From an uncultured Gammaproteobacteria bacterium (GTDB lineage: Bacteria > Patescibacteriota > Microgenomatia > JALYQM01), in the NCBI GenBank assembly GCA_964403585.1, contig CAYOFQ010000002.1, forward strand, positions 5,667 through 69,666: a stretch of DNA of 64,000 bases, in the 5' to 3' direction. Shown piece by piece: positions 3,327 through 64,000 of the stretch. The position numbers were made by a program, and so were the translations under genes. The notes below the pieces were generated by a model. It worked only from the letters and a program-made list of their open reading frames with translations. It made no database searches and was not told where the DNA came from. How positions within the stretch are numbered: position 1 is the stretch's first letter; the number at the start of each line of letters is the position of its first letter.

Positions 3327-3401
3327 ATACTAAACCCTTATTAAATTTGACTTATATCCACATTTTGCATATAATTAACATATAACGATGACTGGATAAG
3401 C

Positions 3402-3914
3402 CTAAGGTTTCGACCGACCGCTGATGCCAGTCGTTTTTTTGACATATTTTAAGCTCATTTTGAGCTTATCCAACGTTACTATATATTGAGCATACTTTCT
3501 CAATAAACTGGAATAATGCCTATTAGGCGTAATTACCTTCAAAAGCTTATTCTTACCAACTAAATGCTCAACTAAACAGTGAAAATCTCCATCATTAGAT
3601 ACAATTATCGCCTTTTCATAGTTTTCAAGCTCAATCATAGTATGTAAAACAAGCTCAGCATCAACATTCCCCTTCACAACTCCAGTTTTCAAAGTTAAGG
3701 TAGGCTTCAAAATGACTATATACCCCATCTCTTGTAAATGTGTATAAAGCTTTTCATTATCAGCTTTAAATCCGATAAAAACAAATGCTTTTTCGATCTT
3801 ATATTTATTTTTTAGATACTGACGAAACTTTCGCCAATCCAATTCCCAACCTTCAGATCGAACTCCTAAATTGAGATTTTGGCTATCTATAAATGCATAA
3901 TTCTCTTTACTCAT
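3402..3914 (-). CDS. NYN/LabA-like (PIN-fold) predicted nuclease inserted in the R-M operon
   Basis: 170 aa. Motifs AFIDSQNL (N-terminal Asp) and DAELVLHTM...IIVSNDGDFHCLVEHL match the NYN-domain acidic core. Its start overlaps the hsdM stop (3911-3914). Confidence 0.65.
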   Translation of the reverse strand: MSKENYAFIDSQNLNLGVRSEGWELDWRKFRQYLKNKYKIEKAFVFIGFKADNEKLYTHLQEMGYIVILKPTLTLKTGVVKGNVDAELVLHTMIELENYEKAIIVSNDGDFHCLVEHLVGKNKLLKVITPNRHYSSLLRKYAQYIVTLDKLKMSLKYVKKTTGISGRSKP

Positions 3915-5704
3915 AACTCAAATCCTAAAGTTTTCAAATTCTTTCGTATCTCTTCTTCTAGTTGTCTCGATTTAGCAAAGTCAGCAGATAAACTCTTCGT
4001 CAACTCCGACATTTTTTCTTCATATGAAATACCGTCATCTTCTTCCTCCGCAATCTCAACATATCTCCCTGGAGTCAACACATAACCATTTTCAGCAATC
4101 TCAGAAAGAGTTACTGATTTACAGAACCCAGCTACGTTCTCATAAGTACCCACTTCACCTCTCCAAGCTCTCACAGTATCAGCAATCTTCTTAATTTGCT
4201 CATCATTAAATATCACTTGCTTCCTCGAAATTTGCTCGAATAGATCCTTGGCATCAATAAACAACGTTTCTCCAGCTCTATTTCGAAACCTTCCAGAAAC
4301 TTTATTCTTAGTCATAAACCACAAAGAAACAGGGAGTGAAACATTATAAAATAGTTTAGGAGGGCAAGCGATAATAATATCAATAAGGTCATCATCGATC
4401 ATCTTCTTACGGATTTCCCCTTCTTTACCACCTACAGCTAATGCCCCGTTAGCCATAACAAAACCAGCCATACCATTGGGAGTTAAATGATGCAAAAAAT
4501 GTTGAATCCACATAAAGTTAGCATTACCGGATGGAGGCGTTCCATATTGAATTCTCGGATCTTTTTCATCTAGTCGATCAGGGTTCCACTCAGCATTAAA
4601 AGGAGGGTTACAAATTTCGAGATCTACCTTTAAGTCGGAAAATTTGTCATCATAATAAGTATTTCCAAGTTCAATCTTTCCATAAATGCCTCTAATCGCT
4701 AAGTTCATTTTACATAACTTAAGAGTAGTTTGATTACTTTCTTGACCATAAATCGCAATCTTTGTAGGGTCTTTATGATGTTCTCGTAAAAATTTACTCG
4801 ACTGAACAAACATACCACCCGATCCACACGCAAAATCCGCAACTCTACTATTTTCAAAAGGTTCAAGCACTTCGACCAAAACCTTAACTATTGAGCGAGC
4901 AGTAAAAAATTCACCTCCACGCTTACCTTCTTCTGAAGCAAACTGACCTAAGAAATATTCGTAAACCCTACCCAATAAATCTTTTTCTTTTTCAATGTCG
5001 TGATCAAAGTTAATTCTAGAAAATATATTTACCAATTCTCCGAGGATGTGACTGTCAAGGCCCACACGAACGTAACTTTTGGGAAGTACCCCAGTAAGCT
5101 GTTCAGGATTATCTTTTTCTATAGCATCCATAGCTTCATCAATGTATTTCGCGATATCACTTGAAGTAGCCTTTGAACGCAAGTATTCCCATCGAGCAAT
5201 TTCTGGTATAAAGAAAATTCCTTTACTTTTATACAAGTCTTTTTCCTCTAGCATTTTCTCTCTTATTTGAGGATCCGGAACATACTCAGGTCTACTAGAA
5301 TCAGCCATAAATTCGACTAATTCATCCCGCCTTTGATAATAAGTGTCGGTAATGTATTTAAGGAATATAAGGCCCAAAACAATATGCTTATAATCGGAGG
5401 CATCAATTGAGCCACGCAGCTTATCTGCAGCGGACCAAAGATCATTCTCAAAATTTATATCTTTGTCCTTATTGATCTCTTGAGTAAGTCTTTTTGCCAT
5501 TTTGGCTGTTTCTAACTGAGCAACACTCACTCTAGATTGAAGTTCACTTGGCAAAGTATCCACTCGAATAAGGTATTTCTTACCTACCTCTTTGATTAGC
5601 ACCTCTCCAGCCTGTATTTTACCTTGTAACTGTTTTTGTATAGCTTGTCGCGACACACCAAGTATCCGTGCAAGGTCATTAATGGTGATATATTTTTCTT
5701 CCAT
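3911..5704 (-). CDS. hsdM: Type I R-M N6-adenine DNA methyltransferase HsdM with extra N-terminal HTH domain
   Basis: 597 aa. HsdM_N-like region NDLWSAADKLRGSIDASDYKHIVLGLIFLKYI, motif I FACGSGGMF and motif IV NPPF (EICNPPFNAEW). The first ~85 aa, ITINDLARILGVSRQAIQKQLQ, form a MerR/excisionase-type helix-turn-helix that canonical HsdM lacks. Confidence 0.9.
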   Translation of the reverse strand: MEEKYITINDLARILGVSRQAIQKQLQGKIQAGEVLIKEVGKKYLIRVDTLPSELQSRVSVAQLETAKMAKRLTQEINKDKDINFENDLWSAADKLRGSIDASDYKHIVLGLIFLKYITDTYYQRRDELVEFMADSSRPEYVPDPQIREKMLEEKDLYKSKGIFFIPEIARWEYLRSKATSSDIAKYIDEAMDAIEKDNPEQLTGVLPKSYVRVGLDSHILGELVNIFSRINFDHDIEKEKDLLGRVYEYFLGQFASEEGKRGGEFFTARSIVKVLVEVLEPFENSRVADFACGSGGMFVQSSKFLREHHKDPTKIAIYGQESNQTTLKLCKMNLAIRGIYGKIELGNTYYDDKFSDLKVDLEICNPPFNAEWNPDRLDEKDPRIQYGTPPSGNANFMWIQHFLHHLTPNGMAGFVMANGALAVGGKEGEIRKKMIDDDLIDIIIACPPKLFYNVSLPVSLWFMTKNKVSGRFRNRAGETLFIDAKDLFEQISRKQVIFNDEQIKKIADTVRAWRGEVGTYENVAGFCKSVTLSEIAENGYVLTPGRYVEIAEEEDDGISYEEKMSELTKSLSADFAKSRQLEEEIRKNLKTLGFEL

Positions 5705-11611: not shown

Positions 11612-14203
11612 ATGCTTAAGCGACTGCTCACTTTTCTACTGCTTCTATCACTCTCGATATTTATTTTTCCGGGCAAAGTCCACGCGGCGTATTCCCTTGC
11701 TGGAAGCAACTCCTTCACCGGAACCAGCAGCGTCGCCATGCCAATTACAGATTTACAAATTAGTGGCACCGGTACCGAACCAATCAATGTAAAACTATTA
11801 GTTACCAGTGGAACACTTTCCATGTCTACCACCACCGGACTTACCTTCGATGGCAGCTCCAGCGGTTCTACAATCTATTTCAGCGGAACACTTACCAATA
11901 TCAATAACGCCTTAGCAACACTCACCTACACCAGAGCTTCAACCGGAACTGATACACTCGAAGTGTCACTGGTCCCGCGCGGTGAAGTTTTTTTTACAGA
12001 CAATAACCACTTATATAAATTTATCTCCGGAACCATCACCGCCAACAGTGCCCGTACCTCAGCCGCAGCACAAACCGCATACGGGGCCACCGGCTATCTT
12101 GCCACTATCACCTCCCAAGCCGAAAACGATTTCGTTGCAAACCGTCTCCAGGGTGATGGGTGGATCGGTGGCAGCGACGCCACTTCTGAAGGCACTTGGA
12201 AATGGATCACTGGACCTGAAACCGACACAACCTTCTGGTCTGGCGCATCAGGTGGAAGCACCGTAGGTGGCAATTACGCCAACTGGGCCTCCGGCGAACC
12301 AAATGACTGGGGTGGCAACGAAGACTGTATCCAGTTTTATATCACCAGCCGCAACTGGAACGATCTACCTTGCACTGGAAACACCCTTTCCGGGTATGTT
12401 GTCGAGTTTGGAGCACCGGGAGATCTACCCAGTGTCGTCGCCAAAAATATTTCTATCACTACCAGTAACGCACCAACCGTGAACACCTTCAGCCCTCTGG
12501 ATAACGCTACTAATATTTCCACCACCTCCAACCTTACATTGACGTTTAATCAAACTATCACTAAAGGTACGGGGAATATTCTCATTAAAAAAACTTCCGA
12601 CAACTCCACCGTTGAAACCATCGATGTCACCAGCTCGCAGGTTACCGGCCAAAGCACCAGCACTATTACTATCGACCCAAACACTACACTCGATGAAAAC
12701 ACCTCCTATTACATCACTATCCCAAATACCGCTTTTAAAAATGGCAGCAACGCGTTTTATACCGGCATCTCCACAACTACTGGCTGGAATTTTACCACCG
12801 GAGATTTCACTAACCCCGGCTTAAGCAGCATAACTGCCACATCAATTTCTAATTCCGGAGCAACTATCACCTGGGCGTCTACCGAGAGTTCGTCATCCCG
12901 GGTAACCTACGGACTCACGACATCATACGGCACTCAAACCTCCGAAACAGATACCTCTCCACGCGTCACATCTCATTCAGTTGCATTAACCGGTTTACTC
13001 GCCTGCACGACCTATCATTACACTGTCACATCACGCGATGCTTCCTCAAATAGCAGCACTTCCTCAGATAATTCATTTACTACCACCGGCTGTGAGGCTA
13101 GCCAAACTCCAGTCGACACCAACACCGAAACCATAACTACAACAACCGGCGGAACAACTACTCTTGAGGAAAACAACAACGAACTGACCGTCCAGGCACC
13201 GGGCAATTTCACTACTGCCGCATCGTCGGTTGTAATCCAAATCAAAGCAGTCGAAAGTTCACCGGTATTAAGTGCAACCGGTAAACCAACCGAAGTCCCC
13301 TTACCGGTCGGCAATATCGTCTTCGATGTTAAAGCCATTATTAATGGAACAACCGTGTTAGATTCATTTGATCAACCGGTCACGATCACCTACCACTATA
13401 CCGATGCAGATATCGTTGGCATCAAAGAAGAAACGCTCAGACTGTATCATTACCACAATAACACCTGGGAAGAACTCGACTCCTGTTATGTTAACCAGAC
13501 TACCAACACCATTTCCTGCACCACCGACAGTTTCTCAATTTTCGCGCTGTTTGGGAAATCCATCAACAGCCCAACCGCTCAAGTTGCTACAACCAACAAC
13601 GGTCCGGCCACATGCGGCTCATCCGTTCCGTCTACGCCCACACTATTTCAAATTGACGCAGCTCAAACCCAAGCCAAGGTATACCTCTCACCCGTTAGTA
13701 ATCCGGTTACCAACTACTTTATTTCCTACGGATACTCACCAAACGAAGAACGCTTTGGCACCTTCACCAACCTAAACCAGTCTACGGGAGTTCTTTCATA
13801 CACCGTCAACTTTTTAAGTGCCAACACCACCTACTATTTCAAACTACGCGCCTACAACGACTGCATGCCGGGCAATTGGAGTAACGAGATGAAGATCACC
13901 ACCCATAAACGCTTATCCGGCAGCACCGTGTACTATAAAAACTCACCCACACACACGCTCTCGGTTTTCCCCAGCCCGCTCAAAAACATTCCCTCCGTTC
14001 TCATATCGCAAAACAACACCTCCCGCATTCTCGGAGCTACAACCGGCACTACCTGTGAATATACTGTCCAATCGGGTGATTCACTCTGGACCATTGCATC
14101 CCAAAAACTCGGTGCCGGCTGGAAATACCAATCGATCATGGAGCAAAACAATTTAAATTCTACTTTCTTGAAGACAGGCTCCGTCTTAAGAATTGGCTGT
14201 TAA
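11612..14203 (+). CDS. Large secreted surface protein with C-type lectin, Ig-like/FN3 and C-terminal LysM domains
   Basis: 863 aa with signal peptide MLKRLLTFLLLLSLSIFIFPGKVHA. CTLD core is WIGGSD...EGTWKW...GEPND...EDC. The FN3-like segment is ATITWASTESSSSRVTYG...YHYTVTSRD. LysM is YTVQSGDSLWTIASQKLG...GSVLRI. Confidence 0.75.
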   Translation: MLKRLLTFLLLLSLSIFIFPGKVHAAYSLAGSNSFTGTSSVAMPITDLQISGTGTEPINVKLLVTSGTLSMSTTTGLTFDGSSSGSTIYFSGTLTNINNALATLTYTRASTGTDTLEVSLVPRGEVFFTDNNHLYKFISGTITANSARTSAAAQTAYGATGYLATITSQAENDFVANRLQGDGWIGGSDATSEGTWKWITGPETDTTFWSGASGGSTVGGNYANWASGEPNDWGGNEDCIQFYITSRNWNDLPCTGNTLSGYVVEFGAPGDLPSVVAKNISITTSNAPTVNTFSPLDNATNISTTSNLTLTFNQTITKGTGNILIKKTSDNSTVETIDVTSSQVTGQSTSTITIDPNTTLDENTSYYITIPNTAFKNGSNAFYTGISTTTGWNFTTGDFTNPGLSSITATSISNSGATITWASTESSSSRVTYGLTTSYGTQTSETDTSPRVTSHSVALTGLLACTTYHYTVTSRDASSNSSTSSDNSFTTTGCEASQTPVDTNTETITTTTGGTTTLEENNNELTVQAPGNFTTAASSVVIQIKAVESSPVLSATGKPTEVPLPVGNIVFDVKAIINGTTVLDSFDQPVTITYHYTDADIVGIKEETLRLYHYHNNTWEELDSCYVNQTTNTISCTTDSFSIFALFGKSINSPTAQVATTNNGPATCGSSVPSTPTLFQIDAAQTQAKVYLSPVSNPVTNYFISYGYSPNEERFGTFTNLNQSTGVLSYTVNFLSANTTYYFKLRAYNDCMPGNWSNEMKITTHKRLSGSTVYYKNSPTHTLSVFPSPLKNIPSVLISQNNTSRILGATTGTTCEYTVQSGDSLWTIASQKLGAGWKYQSIMEQNNLNSTFLKTGSVLRIGC

Positions 14204-18404: not shown

Positions 18405-18681
18405 CTCCCCGACTAGGATTCGAACCTAGAACCTTCTCGTTACATGAACCCCACAAGTTTCCTAGTGGCATGGACTATCTCATCACCATACTTAAAAAGC
18501 ACAGGTGTCAGGCGTATAGTCTCTGAACCTTCAATACGCAAGAAGCGTAAAGCTTGGCTGCGGATTACCATAATCTTTCGATCGTAGGCTTCCCGACAGT
18601 TAACCCAATTTTCACTTCAGGATTTCTCCAGAAGGCTGCATCAATCTACAGCGAGCCGCTCTACCGTTGAGCTATCAGGGA
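18405..18681 (-). tRNA. tRNA-Asn(GUU) interrupted by a group I intron (exons 18648-18681 and 18405-18442)
   Basis: 5' half UCCCUGA-UA-GCUCAACGGUAGAGC-G-GCUCG-CUGU. 3' half UAACGAGA-AGGUU-CUAGGUUCGAAUCCUAG-UCGGGGA-G. The acceptor stems pair (UCCCUGA/UCGGGGA). Spliced anticodon loop is CUGUUAA, class I variable loop, discriminator G73, no encoded CCA. Confidence 0.65.
18443..18647 (-). ncRNA. Group I intron (IC3-like, Azoarcus/cyanobacterial tRNA-intron type), 205 nt, no ORF
   Basis: 5' exon ends in U. IGS GCAG pairs with the exon CUGU. P2 is CUUC-U-GGA-GAAA-UCC-U-GAAG. The core shows extended identity to the Azoarcus pre-tRNA-Ile intron as recalled from memory (UAUGGUAAUCCGCAGCCAAGCUU...UUGAAGGUUCAGAGACUAUACGCC...CACCU). 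The intron ends with omega-G (CAUG|UAACGAG). Confidence 0.65.
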
Positions 18682-20625: not shown

Positions 20626-20711
20626 TTCAGCGACATTCTTTGCCATACCTTAGCGGCAAAGCATAGGTTTAAAGGCTGAGACAAAGTCGAAGCGTTAACC
20701 GTGTCGCTGAA
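20626..20711. repeat. Conserved structured intergenic element, copy X1 (10-bp outer inverted repeat TTCAGCGACA/TGTCGCTGAA, inner hairpin CTTTGCCataccttagcGGCAAAG)
   Basis: Homologous to 63721-63833, sharing TTCTyTGCCATACCTT...GGCArAGCA.AG.TTTAAA.GC...cGTGTCG. It lies between the rpoD stop and the mazG-like start. Confidence 0.5.
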
Positions 20712-37595: not shown

Positions 37596-39419
37596 TTATC
37601 CAAAAGTAAATGCAAAAACCTGAACACGATCATCTAAAAACTCTAATTCAATAGTCGCATCCGTCCATTCGGCAAAGGTAGCCAAATTGTATAACTTGGC
37701 AGCTTTCACCAGAAGTGAATTATCCCGAACGTCTTTACTGACATTTTTCTTATTAGTCCCCGTAACAGTGATCTTCACTCGCTTCCCATTTACCAATACT
37801 GTCTTAGGTTGTCCGTTCCCCTGACAATATTCACCTGTACAAACAAGCGAATCATCACCGGACGCAATAGGTACACTCACCCCGTCCGACATTACTAAAT
37901 TAATCTCTTTACCAATAAAATGGTAACGGAGTGTACTCCCCTTCTCTGCTTCAGCGTATTCAGGAGTTATTTTCCATCTCCCTCCTAAACTATACTGACT
38001 TGCCGACAAATCGTATCGCAATGAATAAGTGGAAAATGAATCCCGAACAACGCTTTCTTTTGACCTAAATTGCTCTTCATCTAATCGTGCGTAACCAACA
38101 TATGTCTCTGGACTAATATCCCGATCTACCACAACACCCGCTTCCTTAGTAAGTTCATAATCTGCCTGCACACCCCGCTCTGCCAATAATAACTGGATCG
38201 CCCGTTCCATATTCTCATAATCACCTTCTCCAAAATGATAGCGCCGGATTCTTCCCTGTGCATCAATCAGGTAATGTGCCGGCCAGTAATGGTTTTCATA
38301 CGCCCGCCAGGTACCAAAGTCATTATCCATCACCACCGGATACGTCAAACCAAAATCAGCAATTGCTTTCTCTACATTTTCCTGAACCTTTTCAAACGCA
38401 AATTCAGGCGAATGCACACCAATAACGGTGAAACCTTTATCTTTATATTTCTTATGCCAATCCTCAATATACGGCAATGTACGAATACAGTTAATACAGC
38501 TGTAGGTCCAAAAATCCACTAAAACAACGTTTCCCTGTAATGCTTTAAGTGTAAAAGGTTCCGGAGTATTCAACCATTTGGTTGGCTTTACAAACTCGGG
38601 AGCCGGACCGACATCTCTCAACAGAGTAGCGCTATCAAAACGGATATCACGTTGTGGAGTTCCCGGATTCTCACGAAGCTGCTGTAATTGACCCACAACC
38701 TCGCTACTCGATTCATACGAAGCTAAGGGGGTTAATACCCAACTCGGTAAACGCTGTACAATAAAAGTCTGAAAACGGCGGTCAATATTGAACACCAAAG
38801 CTAAAGCTGCCAGGATCATTACCACGCCAAAGAATTGTTGGATTCGCCCGGAATATTTATTAAGCAAACGGAAGCGACTTAATATCTCTTTACCACCATA
38901 CGCAATCATCAACAGCACCGAAGCGGATCCGCAAACATATGCAAAGGTTATCAAAACTGCCTCAATAGTTACTGACTGAGTCGCCACCAAAGTAATAACC
39001 GCCGCCAGTATTGGCCCTGCGCAGGGAACCCACAATAAACCGACTGTCAATCCAATCACTACCCCACCCCAAAATCCCGTCCGCTGTCCGACACTTCCCA
39101 CCTGCCCGCTCAACCGGGAAAAAACCCGCTCCGTGAACTGTGAAAAATACGGTACCACCATGGATAAACCAAACATAAATATTAGAACAATGGAAAGATT
39201 CCGCAGCAAATCCGGCGGCAAATTAAAACGATCTACTAATGCGGTTAAACCCAATGTAAAAAACGTAAAGCTGAAAATAAGTCCGAGGATAACCCCCAAC
39301 GGACGACGCGAACCACCAACAACAGTTGAAGATAGAACAATCGGTAAAATTGGCAATACACACGGTGTTAAAGCAGTAACAAATCCGGAAACAAAGGCAA
39401 AAATGAGAAGAAGTGCCAT
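37596..39419 (-). CDS. CcdA/DsbD-family cytochrome-c-biogenesis/disulfide-reductase membrane domain fused to TlpA-like thioredoxin domain
   Basis: 607 aa. N-terminal TM core ALTPCVLPILPIVLSS (DsbD/CcdA Cys). Thioredoxin fold VVLVDFWTYSCINCIRTLPYI (CxxC). C-terminal about 200-aa beta-rich domain. Confidence 0.7.
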   Translation of the reverse strand: MALLLIFAFVSGFVTALTPCVLPILPIVLSSTVVGGSRRPLGVILGLIFSFTFFTLGLTALVDRFNLPPDLLRNLSIVLIFMFGLSMVVPYFSQFTERVFSRLSGQVGSVGQRTGFWGGVVIGLTVGLLWVPCAGPILAAVITLVATQSVTIEAVLITFAYVCGSASVLLMIAYGGKEILSRFRLLNKYSGRIQQFFGVVMILAALALVFNIDRRFQTFIVQRLPSWVLTPLASYESSSEVVGQLQQLRENPGTPQRDIRFDSATLLRDVGPAPEFVKPTKWLNTPEPFTLKALQGNVVLVDFWTYSCINCIRTLPYIEDWHKKYKDKGFTVIGVHSPEFAFEKVQENVEKAIADFGLTYPVVMDNDFGTWRAYENHYWPAHYLIDAQGRIRRYHFGEGDYENMERAIQLLLAERGVQADYELTKEAGVVVDRDISPETYVGYARLDEEQFRSKESVVRDSFSTYSLRYDLSASQYSLGGRWKITPEYAEAEKGSTLRYHFIGKEINLVMSDGVSVPIASGDDSLVCTGEYCQGNGQPKTVLVNGKRVKITVTGTNKKNVSKDVRDNSLLVKAAKLYNLATFAEWTDATIELEFLDDRVQVFAFTFG

Positions 39420-54998: not shown

Positions 54999-55021
54999 AA
55001 AAACATCAAAAGAAAATGATG
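54999..55021 (-). terminator. Intrinsic terminator immediately 3' of ssrA (CAUCA-uuuucuuu-UGAUG-UUUUU)
   Basis: 5-bp stem plus a U5 run on the minus strand. A second overlapping hairpin gives it bidirectional character. Confidence 0.5.
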
Positions 55022-55455
55022 TGGAGATGCCGATCTATGAAATCGGGTCTGGAATCTGTAATTAAAAACATCTACATAGCATAGTCGGTACTTATATCTC
55101 GTACCACAACGATCCTACCGACAGGAGAAGTGATACAAAGGTCAAAGTCTTAAAGGATTACAGCGACCACCCCGAATCCTCGCATACAATCTTTGTTTAC
55201 GCCCTACTCCGCTCGATTGTAAAATCAGAATAGAACGTCCATTGTTTAGCTAAAGAAAAGTTTAGCCAAATGCAGGATAGCTAACGCCTGCTACAGCGTT
55301 ACCCAAGCCGAAGTTTGGGAACTTTGCAGCGATTTTGTCAGCTATTGATGTAGAAGAATCTGCATCTATATTTTAGTCCCGTTTTTACGACTCTTGAGAC
55401 CATCGTCGGCTATGCAGTTTTTAAAGAGCACATCCCATCGAAACAACACATCCCC
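55022..55455 (-). ncRNA. ssrA: tmRNA (SsrA)
   Basis: 5' end GGGGAUGUGUUGUUUCGAUGGGAUG matches the canonical GGGGcUGauucuggaUUCGAcGGGAu. 3' end ...CCGAU-UUCAUAG-AUCGG-CAUCUCC-A forms a T-arm and an acceptor strand pairing with the 5' GGGGAUG. A candidate tag ORF begins after the UAG at ...AAUAGCUGAC... and ends at the UAA inside hairpin GCUAAAcuuuucUUUAGC. It is divergent from smpB. Confidence 0.6.
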
Positions 55456-55910
55456 ATGAGATTTTATGTTAAGACTAGTGCTTAACAAGACTGAATTATA
55501 ACACATTTTAAGCCATTTTTCCAGTAAAATAAACCTGCCAAACCGCTAATAGCAGAGCAAAGCTTTAAACGCAAGCAGAGCGAAGCCTTAATCGTATCAC
55601 TGGCAAGCTCGACAAGAAGGGTATAATTACCCTGTTGACATACATACACTAATGATATAACATATAAATATACTTACAGTATAACAGTCATCACTCGCTG
55701 TAAGTGTTCCTTAAAAATTCCTTTTCTGATTTCGTCGCAGACCCCGGGATCATATAAAAAGGGCACAATACATGTCCTGTCAGTATCTCATTATAGGTGC
55801 CGCTAAATTGGATAAGGAATTTATGAATAAACCCGTCTTTGAAACATAAGGCGGGTTTATTTTTATGCAAAGCCTTTCTCCCTTTACCCCTACACTGGTA
55901 TAATACGCTC

Positions 55911-56354
55911 ATGAAATCACTCGTCTACAACAAACGAGCCAAATTCGACTATTTTCTGGAAGACAAATACGAGGCAGGTATGGTACTTACCGGAGGAGAA
56001 GTCAAATCGATCCGGGAAGGCCGTGCAAGCCTCCAGGATAGCTTTGTGCGGGTTAAAAATGGTGAGGCTTACCTATTGAATGCCTTTATTAATCCCTACA
56101 GCTTCGCCGATAACAGAAACCTCGATCCACGCCGGGAACGCAAACTGTTACTCCATAAAAAACAAATCAACGAACTGATGGCTAAAAGTAATGGCAAAAA
56201 TACCACCATAGTTCCCGTTTCTTTCTACAACAAGAACAACACCATTAAAGTAGAGATCGCCATTGGTAAAGGTAAGAAACAATACGATAAACGCGCCGCT
56301 ATCAAGAAACGCGACTTAGATAAAAAAATCCAGCAGGAAATGAGGATTAGATAG
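55911..56354 (+). CDS. smpB: SsrA-binding protein SmpB
   Basis: The track ORF starts at 55839. The likely start is MKSLVYNKRAKFDYFLEDKYEAGMVLTGGEVKS at 55911, with TATAAT 8 nt upstream (leaderless). C-terminal basic tail KKQYDKRAAIKKRDLDKK. Confidence 0.9.
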   Translation: MKSLVYNKRAKFDYFLEDKYEAGMVLTGGEVKSIREGRASLQDSFVRVKNGEAYLLNAFINPYSFADNRNLDPRRERKLLLHKKQINELMAKSNGKNTTIVPVSFYNKNNTIKVEIAIGKGKKQYDKRAAIKKRDLDKKIQQEMRIR

Positions 56355-56515: not shown

Positions 56516-58576
56516 TTACTCTTTCTTCGTCACATTTTCCTTCAACTCCACCTTAAAAATCTTCTGCTTTGTCAAAACATATAATTGCTTTTGCGCAACA
56601 TCAATTAGAATATCACTCGCATCTTTAAACTCTGGTGAAGTATATGTCGACACATAACTGCCATCCTTTTTAGAAACCACTACCACCCGGGCATTCATCT
56701 CATCCAGAATATATAAAAAATCAATCTCAGCATCAGTCGCAACCGCCCGTACATTTGTCAAATCCCCCTCCACTCCTGATACACTAAAGGTATCCTCTTT
56801 TCCTGAGAACAATTTAATAATATCCCCACTCTTTTTTCCGATCCACACATTTCCGTCGATCGCAAAACTAACTGCATCAGACAAATCCACCGTCACATCT
56901 GATGAAATATAATTACGAACCGGACCGAAACCATTCCCTTCAGGAATGTATTTCCAGATCTGAGCTTTTCCCTGATCTAAAAGGTATAAATTCCCGCCAA
57001 ATAGCTGAACATCAGTCAAGGTGCCCCAAACATCCGCGGGCTCAAGTAATCGCACCACTTCTGAACTTTGCTCTTGAGTACGCACAATACCTTTTCTTGC
57101 ACTCACACCGTAAGTAACAGTCTTATCACCTTCTGCACCGATCAATCCATCTAAATCATTAGGGCCAATCACCGCTGAGGCTGACCGTGTTTCCGTTCCT
57201 ACCTGGTATACGGAATTATGCGCAACATCTGCGACCAGCAACGCTGTTCCGGTAAGCGCAAATCGTTCCCCCACCGCCTGAGCATTTACCGTCGACAAAT
57301 CAAAGTAAGGTGAAAGATCAGTTAATGCGTATGTTTTAGTAACAACTCCATACGCCGACTCAATATCCCGGGATAACTTTTGAACTTCCGGATCTTTAAG
57401 AGTAGCCTCATCGAATTGCGATATAACCCGTCGGGCTTCCTGGAGATAATTCTTAGCTCGCTCGGGATTCAACTCAGCATAGTAAAGCCCTTGTTTATAC
57501 GCTTCTTCAGCTTGCGGCAATATTTCACTTTTAAGAACTGCGGTTTGCTTCTGGTTCTTAAACCTGTTCTCGTAATCATGTCCAATAAAAATAAACCCTG
57601 CAAATAAAAGCAGGATCATACATCCTAAAATAAAAACTCGTCGTCGGGTAAAAAAACTGGTAATTTTCTTACCGGCAGCAGCAATCTTACCCCGCGCCGC
57701 AGAAGGAATAATTTTTGCACTAAACCCTCGAATCGAAGCTTCTGATGAAAACAATCGCTCCCGCTCGGGGACCGGACTAGACAACGCAGCATCAACAGCA
57801 AGCTCTTTCTCAACAAACTCCGGATCCTCAGTCAGGGGAAGAGGTGAAGTAACATCTTCCTCCCGGCTTTCAGCAAAAACGATACTCTCTTCCTCTATAG
57901 AAGGCACGGCATCCGAACCGACATAACATCCAACAATACAGCAACTCGGATGAGTTTGTATTGGTTCATTAAAATACTGGGCTAATTTGGAATACGCTAA
58001 TGCCGAATCTAATTCTTTTAAACTTCCTAAGGTCAAAGGAAAATGACTTGTATCAACAGAACGATTAAATAAGCACAAAGTATCATTGGGTTGAATATAT
58101 CCGGAGAGACTTACAGCCAGGCTGGATCCTGAAGAGTCATCCGTCTCAAACAAATTTCCAAAAGTAGCCTCACGGTATAACCTCATTCCTGTCATTCCCC
58201 CACACCGAACCGTATACAAAACACTGCCCCAAACCACACCTATACAAAGCGAAAAATCAATATTCTCAACATTACCATACTCAAGGATCTTCTTCTCAAT
58301 GAAAGCCTGAGTTTGACGAACACAGTCCAGTAAATGTCCATGAACAGATACACACTCTCCCTGATAATATAATCCTTCAAAAAAAGGAAACACTTCCCTC
58401 CCCATTTGATCTATCGGGAAAACTTCCGGATACGTTATACAAAACAAACCAAAGATTCTCCCATGTGAAGCCAAAACAGAACCGACAGGACTGGTCAGAG
58501 GTAATCCTTCTACATATGATCCGGGAGCCGAAGCCGAGCTAAAAACAAATGGCTGGAAATTGAGCAGAGTATCCAT
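56516..58576 (-). CDS. Large membrane-spanning hypothetical protein (cytoplasmic N-domain, 1 TM, extracellular beta-propeller-like C-domain)
   Basis: 686 aa. TM VFILGCMILLLFAGFIFIG near aa 300. No confident domain call. Confidence 0.5.
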   Translation of the reverse strand: MDTLLNFQPFVFSSASAPGSYVEGLPLTSPVGSVLASHGRIFGLFCITYPEVFPIDQMGREVFPFFEGLYYQGECVSVHGHLLDCVRQTQAFIEKKILEYGNVENIDFSLCIGVVWGSVLYTVRCGGMTGMRLYREATFGNLFETDDSSGSSLAVSLSGYIQPNDTLCLFNRSVDTSHFPLTLGSLKELDSALAYSKLAQYFNEPIQTHPSCCIVGCYVGSDAVPSIEEESIVFAESREEDVTSPLPLTEDPEFVEKELAVDAALSSPVPERERLFSSEASIRGFSAKIIPSAARGKIAAAGKKITSFFTRRRVFILGCMILLLFAGFIFIGHDYENRFKNQKQTAVLKSEILPQAEEAYKQGLYYAELNPERAKNYLQEARRVISQFDEATLKDPEVQKLSRDIESAYGVVTKTYALTDLSPYFDLSTVNAQAVGERFALTGTALLVADVAHNSVYQVGTETRSASAVIGPNDLDGLIGAEGDKTVTYGVSARKGIVRTQEQSSEVVRLLEPADVWGTLTDVQLFGGNLYLLDQGKAQIWKYIPEGNGFGPVRNYISSDVTVDLSDAVSFAIDGNVWIGKKSGDIIKLFSGKEDTFSVSGVEGDLTNVRAVATDAEIDFLYILDEMNARVVVVSKKDGSYVSTYTSPEFKDASDILIDVAQKQLYVLTKQKIFKVELKENVTKKE

Positions 58577-59510: not shown

Positions 59511-61343
59511 TTATTTCTTCTCAATATTAAACAAGGCGCTCTGGATAAATAACTCACCCGGAGCACGCAGGTTAAACACTTGCTTAAATAAATCACCACT
59601 AATGGTTACTGTACCTTTATCAGTCTGGAAACTAACCTGATTAGTATATCCGCCATTAGCATATTGAGTAGAACCGATACCGGTAACGGAATTCACCGCA
59701 TCACCCCCAAGCTCCTGTTTTACCCGTTCAACCGACCAGGTATCACCGTTTGCTTTATCAGTCTGGGATACATGGGTAATGTTATTTCCGTCTTTCTTTA
59801 CCACCAGCACGGCATTCACAATATCGGCCATTTCTGATGAATTTAACCATGGATGCTTACGGGAACCACCACCACCGCGCGGCTTATACCAACCTTTATA
59901 AAACCAGGGGGAACCCGCAATCTTTTCATAGGCATCACCGGTCCAGCAACTCTGCGACCCGCACTTAGTATCCCACAACATCGGAGTGCTATGCCCTCGA
60001 CCTGAGTATGAATAAATCGCACCACCGGCAGTTGAAGCATAATAAGTCGTGATCATATCGTTAGAGGAGTTCGAAACAACGACCATACCTTTCGTTTCTT
60101 CCACTGCCTTATGCCATATGCTCGCTACCCCGCTGGTAGCCTTACTTGAGTTGTATACTTGACATGATTCAGTAATACAGATTGGTTTTGAAGCCACCAT
60201 TGCATAAGTACGGGCCGCAATAGCCTGAGCCTTCTGAGCTTCTAAATCCCACGATGAAGGCATCTCGGCAATACCCTTTAAGTAATTACCTTCAAAATCC
60301 AACGCTCCGGAACTGGTTTGAATTGTCGACGGAAAATCTCGCTTCTCAACACGGATATTCCCATAATACGCTTTAAGAATAGTTTCGTAATTTTGCCCGC
60401 TCTTAGCACGTCCTAAAGCGCCATACTGGCTCATTCCTTTGCGGTGTGGAGCTCCGAAAGAAAATGCTGCAAATGCCGGCGAGAAACCCGGATTATAGGT
60501 AGGGCTCGATGCTGCATCATCAGTCAAAGGGACATCCCCCACTGAAGACGTAAATGATCCGGTCTTCTCTGCTAATAATTGCTGTTGCCTGGCCGACAAA
60601 GCAGCAATCTGCGTCGATAAATCTGCCTGATACTTCTTTGCTTTAGCAATCTCTGCCTCATAAAAAGTTGCTTCTTTTGCAGTCTTCTCTTTTATTGAAG
60701 CCAGTCTGGAATTTTCTTTTTGTAAATCATTTTTAAGTTTCTCTGCGGTAGCCTTATCATCGTTGAGCGAACGCAACTCTGCACCAATACCTTTAATAAA
60801 TCGCTGATCTTCCTCAAGCGCCGCTTCTCTATAAGCAAGCCTTCTCGTTGCATCTCCTAATTCCGAACTTGAGAACAAAATCATTAACGGTGATGTACTT
60901 TTTGAGGTTATATAATAGGAATTTACCTTAGACTCAAACATATCCTGCTGTTCTTGCAGGCGTCCATCAGATTCTGCAATTGAGGTCTGCAGCCGTTTAA
61001 GTTCTTTTTGCTTCTGAGCTATTTGGCCTTCAACTTTTGTAATGGAATTCTTAACGCTATTAAGAGTGGTGGTTAAGCTGGTTAACTGCCCTTCCAAAGG
61101 CTTGGTAGCTTTTACTGAAGCTTCTCGGGCTGACTGCAATTCAGACAGCTTTTTTTCAATATCATCCAACTCATCAGCAAATACCAATGATAAAGAAGTG
61201 GAAGAGTGAATGAGTAAAGATAAACTGAGGATAAAAAGCAAAAAAGCTTTCATCCAAAAAGGTACACGCGAGAACATACTTTCATAATACCATACTAAAA
61301 TAAAGAGTACGCTAAACATCCGATTTACAATTAAGAAACACAT
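59511..61343 (-). CDS. SpoIID/LytB-domain protein with N-terminal coiled-coil
   Basis: Signal peptide (likely start MKAFLLFILSLSLL at 61253), about 230-aa coiled-coil, SpoIID/LytB core HRKGMSQYGA...AQKAQAIAARTYA, C-terminal beta domain. Confidence 0.65.
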   Translation of the reverse strand: MCFLIVNRMFSVLFILVWYYESMFSRVPFWMKAFLLFILSLSLLIHSSTSLSLVFADELDDIEKKLSELQSAREASVKATKPLEGQLTSLTTTLNSVKNSITKVEGQIAQKQKELKRLQTSIAESDGRLQEQQDMFESKVNSYYITSKSTSPLMILFSSSELGDATRRLAYREAALEEDQRFIKGIGAELRSLNDDKATAEKLKNDLQKENSRLASIKEKTAKEATFYEAEIAKAKKYQADLSTQIAALSARQQQLLAEKTGSFTSSVGDVPLTDDAASSPTYNPGFSPAFAAFSFGAPHRKGMSQYGALGRAKSGQNYETILKAYYGNIRVEKRDFPSTIQTSSGALDFEGNYLKGIAEMPSSWDLEAQKAQAIAARTYAMVASKPICITESCQVYNSSKATSGVASIWHKAVEETKGMVVVSNSSNDMITTYYASTAGGAIYSYSGRGHSTPMLWDTKCGSQSCWTGDAYEKIAGSPWFYKGWYKPRGGGGSRKHPWLNSSEMADIVNAVLVVKKDGNNITHVSQTDKANGDTWSVERVKQELGGDAVNSVTGIGSTQYANGGYTNQVSFQTDKGTVTISGDLFKQVFNLRAPGELFIQSALFNIEKK

Positions 61344-61363
61344 GCTTATGATAAAATAAACGT

Positions 61364-61786
61364 ATGAAGAAATGTTTAATTCTCATCCTCTTTTGTTTCT
61401 CATTTTTTGTTGCCCAGAATAGTATAGTTTTTGCCGCACCAACAGTCGAATGCAGCGCCACAATCAAGTGTCCTGCAGGTAAGTCGTGTGTTGGCTCATT
61501 TTGTGTTCAAGCTGCTCCCAGCCTACGCCCTGAATTCCAACAGGAAGGAGCCTTAACCTTTGCCGTCTCTCGATTCTTTACCTATTTATTGCCGGTTATC
61601 GGTATTCTCGGTTTCCTGCTTTTCCTCTGGTCGGGCTTCCAATTCCTGATGAGTAAAGGCGATCCTAAAGCCCTTGCCGCAGCTCAAGCGAGATTAACCT
61701 ATACCGCTATCGGATTGCTAATAATTTTCCTGGCATATAGTATTACAGCATACACAACCGGATTATTTGGATTGGTAACACCATGA
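61364..61786 (+). CDS. TrbC/VirB2-like pilin-family small membrane protein, paralog 1 of 5
   Basis: 140 aa. Signal peptide and Cys-rich short ectodomain. Two hydrophobic helices joined by the conserved turn WSGFQFLMSKGDPKALAAAQARLTYTAIG. Confidence 0.5.
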   Translation: MKKCLILILFCFSFFVAQNSIVFAAPTVECSATIKCPAGKSCVGSFCVQAAPSLRPEFQQEGALTFAVSRFFTYLLPVIGILGFLLFLWSGFQFLMSKGDPKALAAAQARLTYTAIGLLIIFLAYSITAYTTGLFGLVTP

Positions 61787-62205
61787 AAAAAGTATTTAAG
61801 AAAAGCTTTATCATCTCAATATTTGTATGTATCGGACTCTTGGGTATCAAAAATATTCAAGCTGCCAGCTCCGTTCCGGTTGCTACCTGCCAACCGATCC
61901 CGGGACAGGGAGTCTCCATTCAGGATTGTGCGAACGCTAACTTCCCAAAGGGTGCGCCCACTACGATCGGTGGTTGGGTTTCTACCATCTTAGGCCAGGT
62001 ATATACCATAGCGCTTGTCGTCATGCTCGCCTATTTAATCTGGGGTTCATATCGTTTTATGATGGCCGCCGGAGACCCCAAAGCCATTGCCGCAGCCAGA
62101 GCCCATCTGACGTGGGCAATCGCTGGTATGATCATCGTGTTTGTGGCATATTGGATATATCGTGTCATCAACGAACTGGCATTCTATGTATTCCAGGACA
62201 TTTAA
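61783..62205 (+). CDS. TrbC/VirB2-like pilin-family small membrane protein, paralog 2
   Basis: 140 aa. WGSYRFMMAAGDPKAIAAARAHLTWAIAG. ATGA overlap with paralog 1. Confidence 0.5.
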   Translation: MKKVFKKSFIISIFVCIGLLGIKNIQAASSVPVATCQPIPGQGVSIQDCANANFPKGAPTTIGGWVSTILGQVYTIALVVMLAYLIWGSYRFMMAAGDPKAIAAARAHLTWAIAGMIIVFVAYWIYRVINELAFYVFQDI

Positions 62206-62222
62206 TGGTACTATAAAAACAT

Positions 62223-62849
62223 ATGTATATATATAAATTGTTCTTAGATGTAATCGCAGCCGTAGCACCCCCTGAACCGGGAAGCAATACCCCAAGCAAT
62301 GAAGCCGGAAGCATTGTCGGACGAATTTTCCCTCCATTTCCCGGATTTAGCGGATCAATCAGTTTAACCAGATATTTTCTTACCTTATTCAATACAGCCC
62401 TCTATGTCGGCCTCGTCGCTGCTCTTATATATATAGTCTACGGAGCAATCAAATGGATTACCTCGGGCGGAGATATCAAAGCCCTCGCCGCAGCTCGCAA
62501 TACCATTACCCACGCTATAATGGGTGTTATCCTTCTTTCACTCGGCTTAGTCATGAGTCAGGTTGTCGGAACATTTGTCTCTCCCACACTCGACGACACT
62601 AATTCAAAGGCAGTATATATCTGCGGCTATGGCAGCCGCAAAGAACAATGCGATTTAAGTGGCATTCCACCATCAGAATGTTATCAGTCTATTACCTGTC
62701 ACCAAGTCTACTCACGTATTTTAAATGAAAAGGCCGACAAACTACAAATGAGCTACCCAAGCCAATACTGCTTCAGTGCCCAGGAATGCGACAAGGGCTG
62801 TAAACAAAATGAATTAATTAACACATATAAATATTGCCAGCCAATCTAA
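62223..62849 (+). CDS. TrbC/VirB2-like pilin-family protein, paralog 3, with extra Cys-rich C-terminal domain
   Basis: 208 aa. YGAIKWITSGGDIKALAAARNTITHAIMG, plus an about 80-aa C-terminal domain with 8 Cys. Confidence 0.45.
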   Translation: MYIYKLFLDVIAAVAPPEPGSNTPSNEAGSIVGRIFPPFPGFSGSISLTRYFLTLFNTALYVGLVAALIYIVYGAIKWITSGGDIKALAAARNTITHAIMGVILLSLGLVMSQVVGTFVSPTLDDTNSKAVYICGYGSRKEQCDLSGIPPSECYQSITCHQVYSRILNEKADKLQMSYPSQYCFSAQECDKGCKQNELINTYKYCQPI

Positions 62850-62853
62850 GAAT

Positions 62854-63204
62854 ATGAATAGTAAAAAATTACTTATCTTTTTCATACTGCTCACGGGGTT
62901 AATACCTACCCGGCTGGCTGAAGCGGCCGGGCTGGGAACCTTAAGTCCACCGACTGGTACAACTCTAGATCTGAATGCCAACGTTATCCGTTTTGTTAAT
63001 TTTGCTATCGGCAGCGGTACGGTTGTTTTTCTGTACATGTTTGTCCGTGGAGCGATTGAATGGACTATTTCCGAGGGAGATAAAATGAGGCTCGAAACCG
63101 CACGAAACCGCATGACCCAAGCCGCTATCGGACTACTGCTTTTAGGTACCTGTTTCGCAATCGCATCAATTGTGAGATCCTTAACCTATTCACGGGGATT
63201 TTAA
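62854..63204 (+). CDS. TrbC/VirB2-like pilin-family small membrane protein, paralog 4
   Basis: 116 aa. VRGAIEWTISEGDKMRLETARNRMTQAAIG. Confidence 0.45.
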   Translation: MNSKKLLIFFILLTGLIPTRLAEAAGLGTLSPPTGTTLDLNANVIRFVNFAIGSGTVVFLYMFVRGAIEWTISEGDKMRLETARNRMTQAAIGLLLLGTCFAIASIVRSLTYSRGF

Positions 63205-63262
63205 ACAATTTTGGAAAAAATATGGTATAATAAGTTGTCTTGAAGGGAGGTGAATTTAAAAC

Positions 63263-63646
63263 ATGTTCAAAAAAGCATATGCAAAATTAGTTGGTGTTTC
63301 ATCAGCAGCAACAGCGGTATTATCTTTGGCAACGGCTACATACGCTCAGGTAACCTTATCGTTCCCTACTACCAGCCAATACGGTTTCAACGATTTGCCA
63401 ACAGCTCTTAGCGGAGTCTTAAACCTCGTTTTCTTCTTTGCGTTAATCTTAGTTTTGATCTACCTCGTTTGGGGTGGTATCCAGTGGATCACATCCGGTG
63501 GAGACAAAGCAGGAACTGAAGCAGCTCGAGGTAAGATCACTGGCGCTATCGTCGGTATCATTATCGTTGCAGTAGCATTCGCAATCTTCCGATTGCTCAT
63601 GACATTCGTCGGTGCTACAAACTCTATCGTTATCACCAAACAATAA
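63263..63646 (+). CDS. TrbC/VirB2-like pilin-family small membrane protein, paralog 5
   Basis: 127 aa. SD GGAGG. WGGIQWITSGGDKAGTEAARGKITGAIVG. Followed by a strong terminator. Confidence 0.5.
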   Translation: MFKKAYAKLVGVSSAATAVLSLATATYAQVTLSFPTTSQYGFNDLPTALSGVLNLVFFFALILVLIYLVWGGIQWITSGGDKAGTEAARGKITGAIVGIIIVAVAFAIFRLLMTFVGATNSIVITKQ

Positions 63647-63672
63647 AACTCAAAAACAAAATAGAGTTAAAA

Positions 63673-63702
63673 ATACCGGTCTTTATGACCGGTATTTTTT
63701 TG
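63673..63702 (+). terminator. Rho-independent terminator ATACCGGTCtttatGACCGGTATttttttt
   Basis: Perfect 9-bp stem plus a T7 run, 25 nt after the last pilin-like gene. Confidence 0.8.
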
Positions 63703-63720
63703 CATAAAGTAATATTTTTT

Positions 63721-63833
63721 ACGAGTCATAAGTGTAAGACGACCTTCTCTGCCATACCTTGAACGGCAGAGCAGAGCTTTAAATGCCAATAAGTAAAGGC
63801 ATTAAGCGTGTCGTCTTACACTTATGACGAGTA
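63721..63833. repeat. Conserved structured intergenic element, copy X2 (19-bp outer inverted repeat, inner hairpin CTCTGCCataccttgaacGGCAGAG)
   Basis: Outer arms GTCATAAGTGTAAGACGAC/GTCGTCTTACACTTATGAC. The core is homologous to X1 at 20626-20711. Confidence 0.5.
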
Positions 63834-64000
63834 GGATTAATTTAAAGCGGTATCGTCACCGGCAACCAATAGGCAAAGAAAGCAAAATAGGCAATAAAAA
63901 ACAGTGCCGTTAATTTCCAGTCACAGTATTTGAAAAGATAATAGCAAGTTAAAAGCAAAATAAAAGGAAACGCCGGAACATAATAAAAAGAATATTGAAC

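Follow-up and report, generated by a model that had tools for sequence, protein, structure and literature searches.

A probable chromosomal array of VirB2-like pilin genes belonging to a Patescibacteria-type type IV secretion system in a Microgenomatia genome

The window analyzed here, the whole 64,000-nucleotide stretch of contig CAYOFQ010000002.1 from an uncultured bacterium of the Microgenomatia lineage, carries near its right end five tandem genes (61364–63646, plus strand) encoding small proteins with two hydrophobic helices. With good confidence, we assign these genes to a chromosomal array of VirB2-like pilins (family PF18895) of a Patescibacteria-type type IV secretion system (T4SS), related to the conjugation machinery of the monoderm MPF-FATA class. 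Among uncultivated bacteria, Patescibacteria account for a large fraction; they are ultrasmall and host-dependent, living on other cells.

The listing of open reading frames (ORFs) reproduces exactly the span and the sizes, 116 to 208 amino acids (aa), given in a preliminary description of this DNA: pilin 1 (61364–61786, 140 aa), pilin 2 (61783–62205, 140 aa), pilin 3 (62223–62849, 208 aa), pilin 4 (62854–63204, 116 aa) and pilin 5 (63263–63646, 127 aa), all on the plus strand. The paralogs are mutually homologous, with 19–27% global identity to paralog 1 and 18–48% local pairwise identity. The two hydrophobic helices claimed for each protein are borne out by a hydropathy scan, which finds two strongly hydrophobic segments around a short polar loop in all five, and by AlphaFold2 models of paralogs 5 and 3. 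The model of pilin 5, built from a 121-sequence alignment, is a hairpin of two helices (residues 45–77 and 82–116) joined by a four-residue turn, with a predicted local distance difference test (pLDDT) score of 94–97, and pilin 3 displays the same hairpin core (pLDDT 86–93). The signal peptide attributed to every copy is seen by hydropathy in paralogs 1, 2, 4 and 5 but not in paralog 3 (MYIYKLFLDVIAAVAPPEP...), which has in common with its closest orthologs an unusual N-terminus devoid of any hydrophobic segment above threshold. Likewise, the turn motif (W/Y)xxSGGD(P/I)KA(L/I)AAAR proposed for the whole set holds for paralog 3, while the other four follow a looser consensus only. Indeed, the loop core common to the alignment comprises G-D, an Ala seven residues past the Asp, and then R or Q, and the residues invariant in all five are A25, G99, D100, A107, T112 and G117 in paralog 1 numbering. 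The corresponding hairpin loops read SKGDPKALAAAQ in pilin 1, AAGDPKAIAAAR in pilin 2, SGGDIKALAAAR in pilin 3, SEGDKMRLETAR in pilin 4 and SGGDKAGTEAARGK in pilin 5.

Variation within the array is greatest at the exposed ends, where the N-terminal segments contain much Ser, Thr and Pro. Between leader and helix 1, four Cys residues are present in pilin 1, whose signal peptide is followed by this exposed segment, and two in pilin 2, while pilin 5 is entirely free of Cys. The additional 8-Cys domain reported for paralog 3 is there as described: the protein has exactly 8 Cys, all located in a C-terminal extension of about 75 aa (residues ~135–206, roughly 62625–62846), and these are conserved in the orthologs P0024, P0020 and that of the related locus L006; AlphaFold2 models this domain with low confidence (pLDDT 39–62). 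Pilin 4 is the most divergent copy, yet a clear paralog by alignment, and it has a signal peptide.

Family membership was assessed with profile searches. For PF18895 (T4SS_pilin, gathering cut-off 26.6 bits), pilins 1, 2 and 5 score above the cut-off (31.8, 32.5 and 29.8 bits, respectively), whereas pilin 3 (23.5 bits, E = 6e-5) and pilin 4 (15.2 bits, E = 0.023) fall below it and are joined to the others through alignment and positional orthology. Paralogs 1, 2, 3 and 5 match at E < 0.001 and cover about 59–66 of the 71 profile positions. Since all five match PF18895 independently and each has a positional ortholog elsewhere, the resemblance goes beyond chance. Similarity to T4SS pilin profiles, which the preliminary description anticipated, is thus found for all five, three of them above the cut-off, whereas the search it proposed with the TrbC/VirB2 profile PF04956 returned none of the five at E ≤ 1. 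A second T4SS-related family, NCBIfam NF045849 (Mbov_0395 family pilin-like conjugal transfer protein, cut-off 40 bits), is reached by paralog 2 with 41.3 bits; paralogs 1, 4 and 5 obtain 18.6, 13.1 and 19.8 bits, and paralog 3 does not match. Furthermore, a profile of the family searched against 5.8 billion proteins retrieved 337 relatives at E ≤ 0.001, of which nearly all of the best 120 carry PF18895, and those with a name at NCBI are called 'pilin' and come from metagenome-assembled genomes of Patescibacteria or Microgenomates. PF18895 is matched by 119 of 121 homologs, six of the 121 also match PF04956 (best E 3.9e-6) and one matches CagC. When paralog 2 and the PF04956-positive homolog P0054 were compared by tblastn with 72,556 plasmids, no match was obtained.

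These results bear on the idea that the five are not secretion components at all, but generic membrane proteins or, together with the SpoIID/LytB gene that is immediately adjacent and divergent, a holin-like lysis or autolysis cassette. Holins are indeed small, with two or three transmembrane helices, and are encoded beside wall hydrolases. We nevertheless regard such a cassette as highly improbable: no PHROGs family matches any of the five at E ≤ 0.01, all five match a T4SS pilin family, two more copies lie directly behind VirB4 in related genomes, and four of the five proteins have the cleavable signal peptides that holins do without. A type IV pilus pilin was also considered and rejected. 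Such pilins have a class III prepilin leader that is processed at a G/F-T-L-x-E site, followed by only one long hydrophobic helix at the N-terminus; the sequences examined here have ordinary Sec-type leaders and two helices, and they match no Pfam family of type IV pilus pilins.

The preliminary description noted that VirB4 and VirD4 are absent from the window, and none of the window ORFs of at least 450 aa matches either family; its implication that the machinery is missing does not stand, as T4SS genes lie just past the window end. The Logan contig L002 matches the window identically and reaches beyond it, where it carries a convergent PMT-like GT-C glycosyltransferase gene, a YfhO homolog and a PrgI-like gene. 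This last gene, PrgI/VirB3-like and on the plus strand, starts at L002 position 11774 (window-equivalent ~67460), about 3.8 kb after pilin 5, and over the first 307 aa its product shares 69% identity with a relative's 823-aa protein, which carries a PrgI (VirB3-like) domain at the N-terminus. At its end L002 runs into a (CCACAG)n repeat, inside which begins, with an overlap of 25–29 nt, a 68.7-kb contig from the same sample (L014; SRR16481186). L014 opens with the C-terminal 556 aa of the PrgI-like protein, followed by a TrsD-like gene and a VirB4 ATPase with P-loop_TraG and AAA_10 domains that scores 389 bits against NF045971 (CD1110 family, cut-off 325). After VirB4 come two further PF18895 pilins, of 201 and 112 aa, and the contig also encodes a 509-aa polytopic protein whose signal peptide and Cys-rich start are accompanied by several hydrophobic segments (about five transmembrane ones). 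The downstream search suggested in the preliminary description therefore locates PrgI/VirB3-like, TrsD-like and VirB4 genes beyond the window end, and its proposal of a VirB2/TrbC pilin-like topology is sustained by the PF18895 similarity together with these T4SS genes. We strongly infer that L002 and L014 are joined in the source genome.

Related genomes display the same gene order, on one contig in L006 and L007 and up to the locus ends in L003 and L004. In their left part, a 686-aa protein, DUF5657, a bPH membrane protein, SpoIID and five or six pilins follow one another, and this half of the order is also found in two JGI contigs. The right part consists of the PMT-like gene, a second convergent gene, the PrgI-like and TrsD-like genes, VirB4, two pilins and the polytopic protein; the second convergent gene is YfhO in L006, and in L003, L004 and L007 it is an unmatched gene of 488–498 aa accompanied by a sulfatase gene on the plus strand. 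Two pilins directly follow VirB4 in every relative with a readable flank. The VirB4 protein is 70–97% identical to proteins of Curtissbacteria, Roizmanbacteria and other Microgenomates, which points to a Microgenomatia lineage. Its very strong conservation (L006 13704–15494 and homologs) was noted beside adjacent pilins and a PrgI-like protein that are far more divergent.

Two observations concern the PrgI/VirB3-like gene itself. The hexanucleotide (CAGCCA)n, present at L002 12640–12696 and L014 1–30 (window-equivalent ~68330–68390), encodes Pro-Gln repeats inside this gene, and it is at this repeat that the short-read assembly broke. Its product is also atypical of VirB3-like proteins in that a long coiled coil makes up the middle part and the C-terminal domain is CarboxypepD_reg-like.

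The nature of this machinery also lends itself to the explanation that the five proteins are VirB2-like membrane parts of a pilus-less T4SS, which form or line a channel through membrane and wall with no extended filament. The machinery, with its CD1110-family VirB4, is of the monoderm MPF-FATA type, and such systems are generally without pili (PMC12102498; PMC10633639). In addition, the best NCBIfam match is the family NF045849 of Mycoplasma integrative and conjugative elements (ICEs), whose pilin-like conjugal transfer protein is a presumed channel component, and both VirB4 and the TrsD-like protein also match the neighboring ICE ATPase family NF045975. However, seven differentiated paralogs with large and variable Cys-rich extracellular extensions are ill-suited to a buried channel part, and we consider a pilus-less system credible but rather unlikely.

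Comparison across genomes indicates that the members of the array have distinct identities. The five pilins have one-to-one positional orthologs in L006, with 65, 62, 67, 69 and 94% identity for pilins 1 to 5, and in L003, with 64, 53, 41, 41 and 71%, and the off-diagonal identities of the cross-genome comparison are 22–46%. Conservation is by a wide margin strongest for pilin 5, to whose type about 30 of the metagenomic matches P0005–P0040 belong (62–88% identity). This one-to-one orthology implies that the duplications are old and that the copies have been kept distinct. L006 has a sixth pilin-family gene of 195 aa at the array head (3481–4068, plus strand), so that copy number varies by one among close relatives.

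An array of this kind might also be a repertoire for host range or antigenic variation, in which interchangeable major pilins are expressed alternatively, as proposed for the VirB2 paralogs of Bartonella and Anaplasma and, in PMC12102498, for Patescibacteria arrays as well. The low identity within the array (18–48%) and the high variability of the exposed ends accord with this idea, which we nonetheless judge improbable. Indeed, order and number are kept between the one-to-one orthologs of L006 and L003, save the one extra copy in L006, pilins 1 to 4 look co-transcribed and in part translationally coupled, and a scan restricted to 63640–64000 found neither recombination repeats nor an invertible promoter. 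Stable and distinct orthologs thus favor fixed and different roles over a fast-changing repertoire.

Expression signals set pilin 5 apart. The start codon of pilin 2 overlaps the stop codon of pilin 1 in an ATGA, which suggests translational coupling. A putative promoter for pilin 1 (61324–61352, plus strand; TTTACA, 17 nt, TATGAT), with 10 of 12 consensus matches, comes from a consensus scan only; its −10 box ends 11 nt (61353–61363) ahead of the ATG, so that the leader would be very short. The same kind of scan points to an internal putative promoter with a Shine-Dalgarno-like site ahead of pilin 5 (63202–63252, plus strand), consisting of an extended −10 box, TGgTATAAT (63223–63231), and of the Shine-Dalgarno-like GGGAGGTG (63245–63252). 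Both ATATGGTATAAT and GAAGGGAGGTGA are kept in the matching intergenic spacer of L006 and L003 despite the divergence of the flanking pilins. Among the five genes, pilin 5 alone is preceded by the GGGAGG box and the extended −10, and the spacers are otherwise diverged in L006 and L003. The putative pilin operon is closed by a bidirectional, intrinsic-terminator-like hairpin (63669–63699) with an A-run and a T-run on either side; its 13-bp perfect stem followed by a T-run is consistent with the strong terminator that had been placed after the block. An Rfam scan yielded no match in the pilin region.

How the pilins could operate is conceivable by extension from VirB2 and TraA. They would be exported by the Sec pathway and cleaved by signal peptidase, paralog 3 being inserted without a cleavable leader, and would then be kept in the membrane as hairpins whose two ends lie outside and whose conserved G-D...A-R loop faces the cytoplasm. 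A VirB4-powered machine would pull them out and polymerize them into a pilus or a short conduit, the loops lining the lumen and the variable Ser/Thr/Pro-rich or Cys-rich extensions, including the 8-Cys domain of pilin 3, coating the outside. In F and T pili, which are of the VirB2 type, both pilin ends face outward; on this basis, and with the orientation carried over from them, the extensions may be read as surface modules. Pilin 5 would be the candidate major subunit because it is the most conserved copy, has no Cys and possesses its own conserved putative promoter and ribosome-binding site, and pilins 1 to 4 would be minor subunits or decorate the surface. On the analogy of Southlakia epibionticum, the resulting structure is likely to serve for contact or exchange with a bacterial host, not for conjugation.

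A more elaborate version can be put forward tentatively, although we would not expect it to be correct as a whole. It supposes a heteromeric pilus with fixed roles, in which pilin 5 is the major subunit, pilins 1 to 4 and the pair after VirB4 are anciently differentiated minor subunits bearing host-binding modules that are either disulfide-rich or Ser/Thr/Pro-rich, SpoIID/LytB opens the wall in place of a missing VirB1, and the PMT-like and YfhO proteins O-glycosylate the exposed ends. Such a structure, if real, would be without precedent in monoderms as a multi-subunit, glycosylated T4SS pilus.

Several points weigh against the assignment of the array to a T4SS pilin system, or against parts of it. 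The family profile compared with all PDB sequences gave a chance match alone, to a flagellar M-ring protein (E = 1.1), and its hhalign comparison with Agrobacterium tumefaciens VirB2 (sequence of PDB 8cue) gave E = 0.06 and a probability of 0.9%, while fold searches are non-specific, a helical hairpin being too generic to discriminate. Because these direct ties to characterized pilins are weak, we file the five proteins as PF18895 and 'VirB2-like' rather than as members of PF04956. The join of L002 and L014 is based on a low-complexity repeat, a common sample and synteny in relatives, with no continuous read, and two convergent glycosyltransferase genes stand between the array and the T4SS core, so that their co-regulation is no more than a possibility. 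No family match to a relaxase or to a VirD4-type coupling protein was obtained among the scanned ORFs and the precomputed gene calls of the stretches examined. The proposal of pilin 5 as the major subunit draws on conservation and expression signals alone. Finally, the literature found reports no such pilus in any Patescibacterium, and in the words of a 2025 review a pilus in these monoderms is an 'intriguing possibility' (PMC12857230); the question whether such pilins build a filament is a general one and is not specific to this locus.

The assignment to a Patescibacteria pilin array can be set against what the literature describes. Applying PF18895, PF04956 and CONJScan profiles to 3,035 Patescibacteria genomes, Quinonero-Coronel et al. 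(2025) reported 441 arrays of 2–11 VirB2-like pilin genes, which came from 383 assemblies, mostly of Microgenomatia and Saccharimonadia, and whose members were on average 25% identical within an array (PMC12102498). In that account, the Patescibacteria VirB4 clade is related to the monoderm MPF-FATA class, TrsD and PrgI/VirB3 often adjoin VirB4, relaxases are few in Patescibacteria, and most pilin-bearing genomes have no VirB1, for which other glycosidases may substitute. Its definition of an array is a group of 2–11 genes that match a pilin HMM at i-E < 0.001 over more than 50% of the profile and that follow one another directly or with one non-pilin gene between. Paralogs 1, 2, 3 and 5 qualify under this definition, paralog 4 (E = 0.023) lying between 3 and 5. 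The VirB4 in the same genome that is also required of a Patescibacteria array is provided here by L014, through the inferred join, and it is on a single contig with the array in L006 and L007. In Southlakia epibionticum, the only species to which genetics has been applied in this respect, Wang et al. (2023) found by transposon sequencing that the T4SS and a series of pilins are essential for epibiotic growth, strain ML1 having an essential array of six (PMC10633639).

The locus agrees with the published description of Patescibacteria arrays in every respect tested. Like them, it consists of tandem and divergent copies (~25% identity) of the PF18895 family, is from what looks like a Microgenomatia lineage, where arrays are reported as most abundant, and is chromosomal, close to a PrgI/VirB3–TrsD–VirB4 cluster of MPF-FATA ancestry with no relaxase nearby. 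Unlike them, it is split, with five copies before the two convergent GT-C genes and two after VirB4; its SpoIID/LytB gene is divergent from the array; and its copies have stable one-to-one orthologs, with a highly conserved pilin 5 that has its own putative promoter. The split array, the divergent SpoIID gene, the one-to-one orthology and the pilin 5 promoter were not found in the consulted passages of PMC12102498, PMC10633639 and PMC12857230. Since the family, the arrays and the link to VirB4 have already been published, the locus does not change the overall picture, and what it adds is modest: stable orthologs, a candidate major subunit, and conserved wall-enzyme and glycosyltransferase neighbors. 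It is of value as a well-resolved example of the Microgenomatia type that offers testable predictions on subunit roles, which stem from stable differentiated paralogs, a conserved and separately promoted subunit, and the wall-remodeling and glycosyltransferase genes next to it.

Comparison with better-characterized pilins yields a mixed picture. In common with TrbC/VirB2 pilins such as A. tumefaciens VirB2 and F TraA, the proteins are small and have a leader, their two hydrophobic helices are connected by a short loop of polar or charged character, they are encoded with a VirB4 ATPase, and six of 121 family members match PF04956. On the other hand, unlike the TrbC/VirB2 pilins of diderm T4SSs, the five have no PF04956 match and a non-significant VirB2 profile comparison, the host is a monoderm, and several copies have long Cys-rich extracellular extensions. 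The resemblance to the Mbov_0395 family of Mycoplasma ICEs lies in the NF045849 score of paralog 2 and the weak matches of paralogs 1, 4 and 5, in a VirB4 resembling the ATPase family Mbov_0397 and in the monoderm nature of both hosts. The Mycoplasma protein is, however, a conjugation part of a mobile element, whereas seven chromosomal copies are found here with no matched relaxase or coupling protein in the stretches examined.

Upstream of the array, the preliminary description had placed a SpoIID/LytB protein, and the gene at 59511–61343 (minus strand), divergent from pilin 1, conforms to this: its product scores 99.5 bits against TIGR02669 (cut-off 83.3), matches Pfam SpoIID with E = 8e-16 and includes a PcsB-like coiled coil besides a signal or anchor at the N-terminus. 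It is kept beside the array in L003, L004, L006, L007 and the two JGI contigs. The orthologs are 580–583 aa long, for a longest ORF of 610 aa here, and the internal MKAFLLFILSLSLL... is signal-peptide-like, which suggests that the ORF start is too early; the true start is probably the Met of MKAFLLF..., near 61253. Such a start would leave about 110 bp of intergenic promoter region common to SpoIID and pilin 1. The SpoIID/LytB protein may be the enzyme that opens the cell wall for the secretion system.

Past the array, the PMT-like (GT39/ArnT-type) gene and the YfhO GT-C gene occupy L002 8156–11672 on the minus strand (window-equivalent ~63842–67400). The PMT-like gene directly follows the array wherever the flank is readable, and the YfhO GT-C gene comes next here and in L006. 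With the Ser/Thr/Pro-rich exposed N-termini, these adjoining genes make O-glycosylation of the pilins possible. The compared genomes are fairly close relatives, so that the conserved SpoIID and GT-C neighborhood does no more than hint at functional coupling.

The interval from the pilin terminator to the convergent PMT-like gene contains a 24-nt inverted repeat with a 66-nt spacer (63720–63833), which is probably the 'repeat X2' of the preliminary description. It forms a very stable fold (−58.4 kcal/mol, z = −9.6), to which no Rfam family corresponds; elsewhere in the window, it recurs as a partial copy at 20631–20673 (84% over 44 nt) and as an 18-nt match at 55552–55569. As the orthologous spacers of L006 and L003 measure just ~55–60 nt by gene coordinates, this repeat resembles an insertion.

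On the other side of SpoIID, the 686-aa protein (56516–58576, minus strand) belongs to no Pfam family, and only its C-terminal end faintly resembles NHL repeats; with a conservation of 67% identity, it occupies the same place beside DUF5657 and the bPH membrane protein in all relatives. Just ahead of this block, a tmRNA gene (55019–55455, minus strand, 91 bits) adjoins smpB (55911–56354, plus strand).

Elsewhere the window has the makeup of an ordinary chromosome, with rpoD, dnaG, tRNAs, tmRNA and smpB. A gene at 37596–39419 (minus strand) fuses a DsbD-type membrane domain with AhpC/Redoxin and thioredoxin-like domains, which amounts to an extracytoplasmic thiol-redox system that might act on the Cys-rich extensions of the pilins. 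The 863-aa product of 11612–14203 (plus strand), with C-type lectin, Big_5, fn3, purple-acid-phosphatase N and LysM domains, is predicted to be a surface protein and is a candidate adhesin; its gene is preceded by a full-length cytochrome P450 gene (10116–11567, plus strand, Pfam E = 2e-74) within an otherwise Patescibacteria-like genome. G+C content ranges from 34 to 54% along the window, low at 1–4 kb and high at 24–26 kb and 30–32 kb, an unevenness that makes acquired segments possible. A type I restriction-modification system is encoded at 2157–5704 on the minus strand (HsdS 2157–3326, HsdM 3911–5704). Finally, a group I intron (Rfam RF00028, 79.7 bits; 18451–18657, minus strand) resides inside a tRNA gene: its flanks, which reach ~18700 and ~18400, give a tRNA in ARAGORN when joined, with the 5' half TCCCTGATAGCTCAACGGTAGAGC and a 3' half ending GGTTCGAATCCTAGTCGGGGAGCA, the splice points being uncertain.

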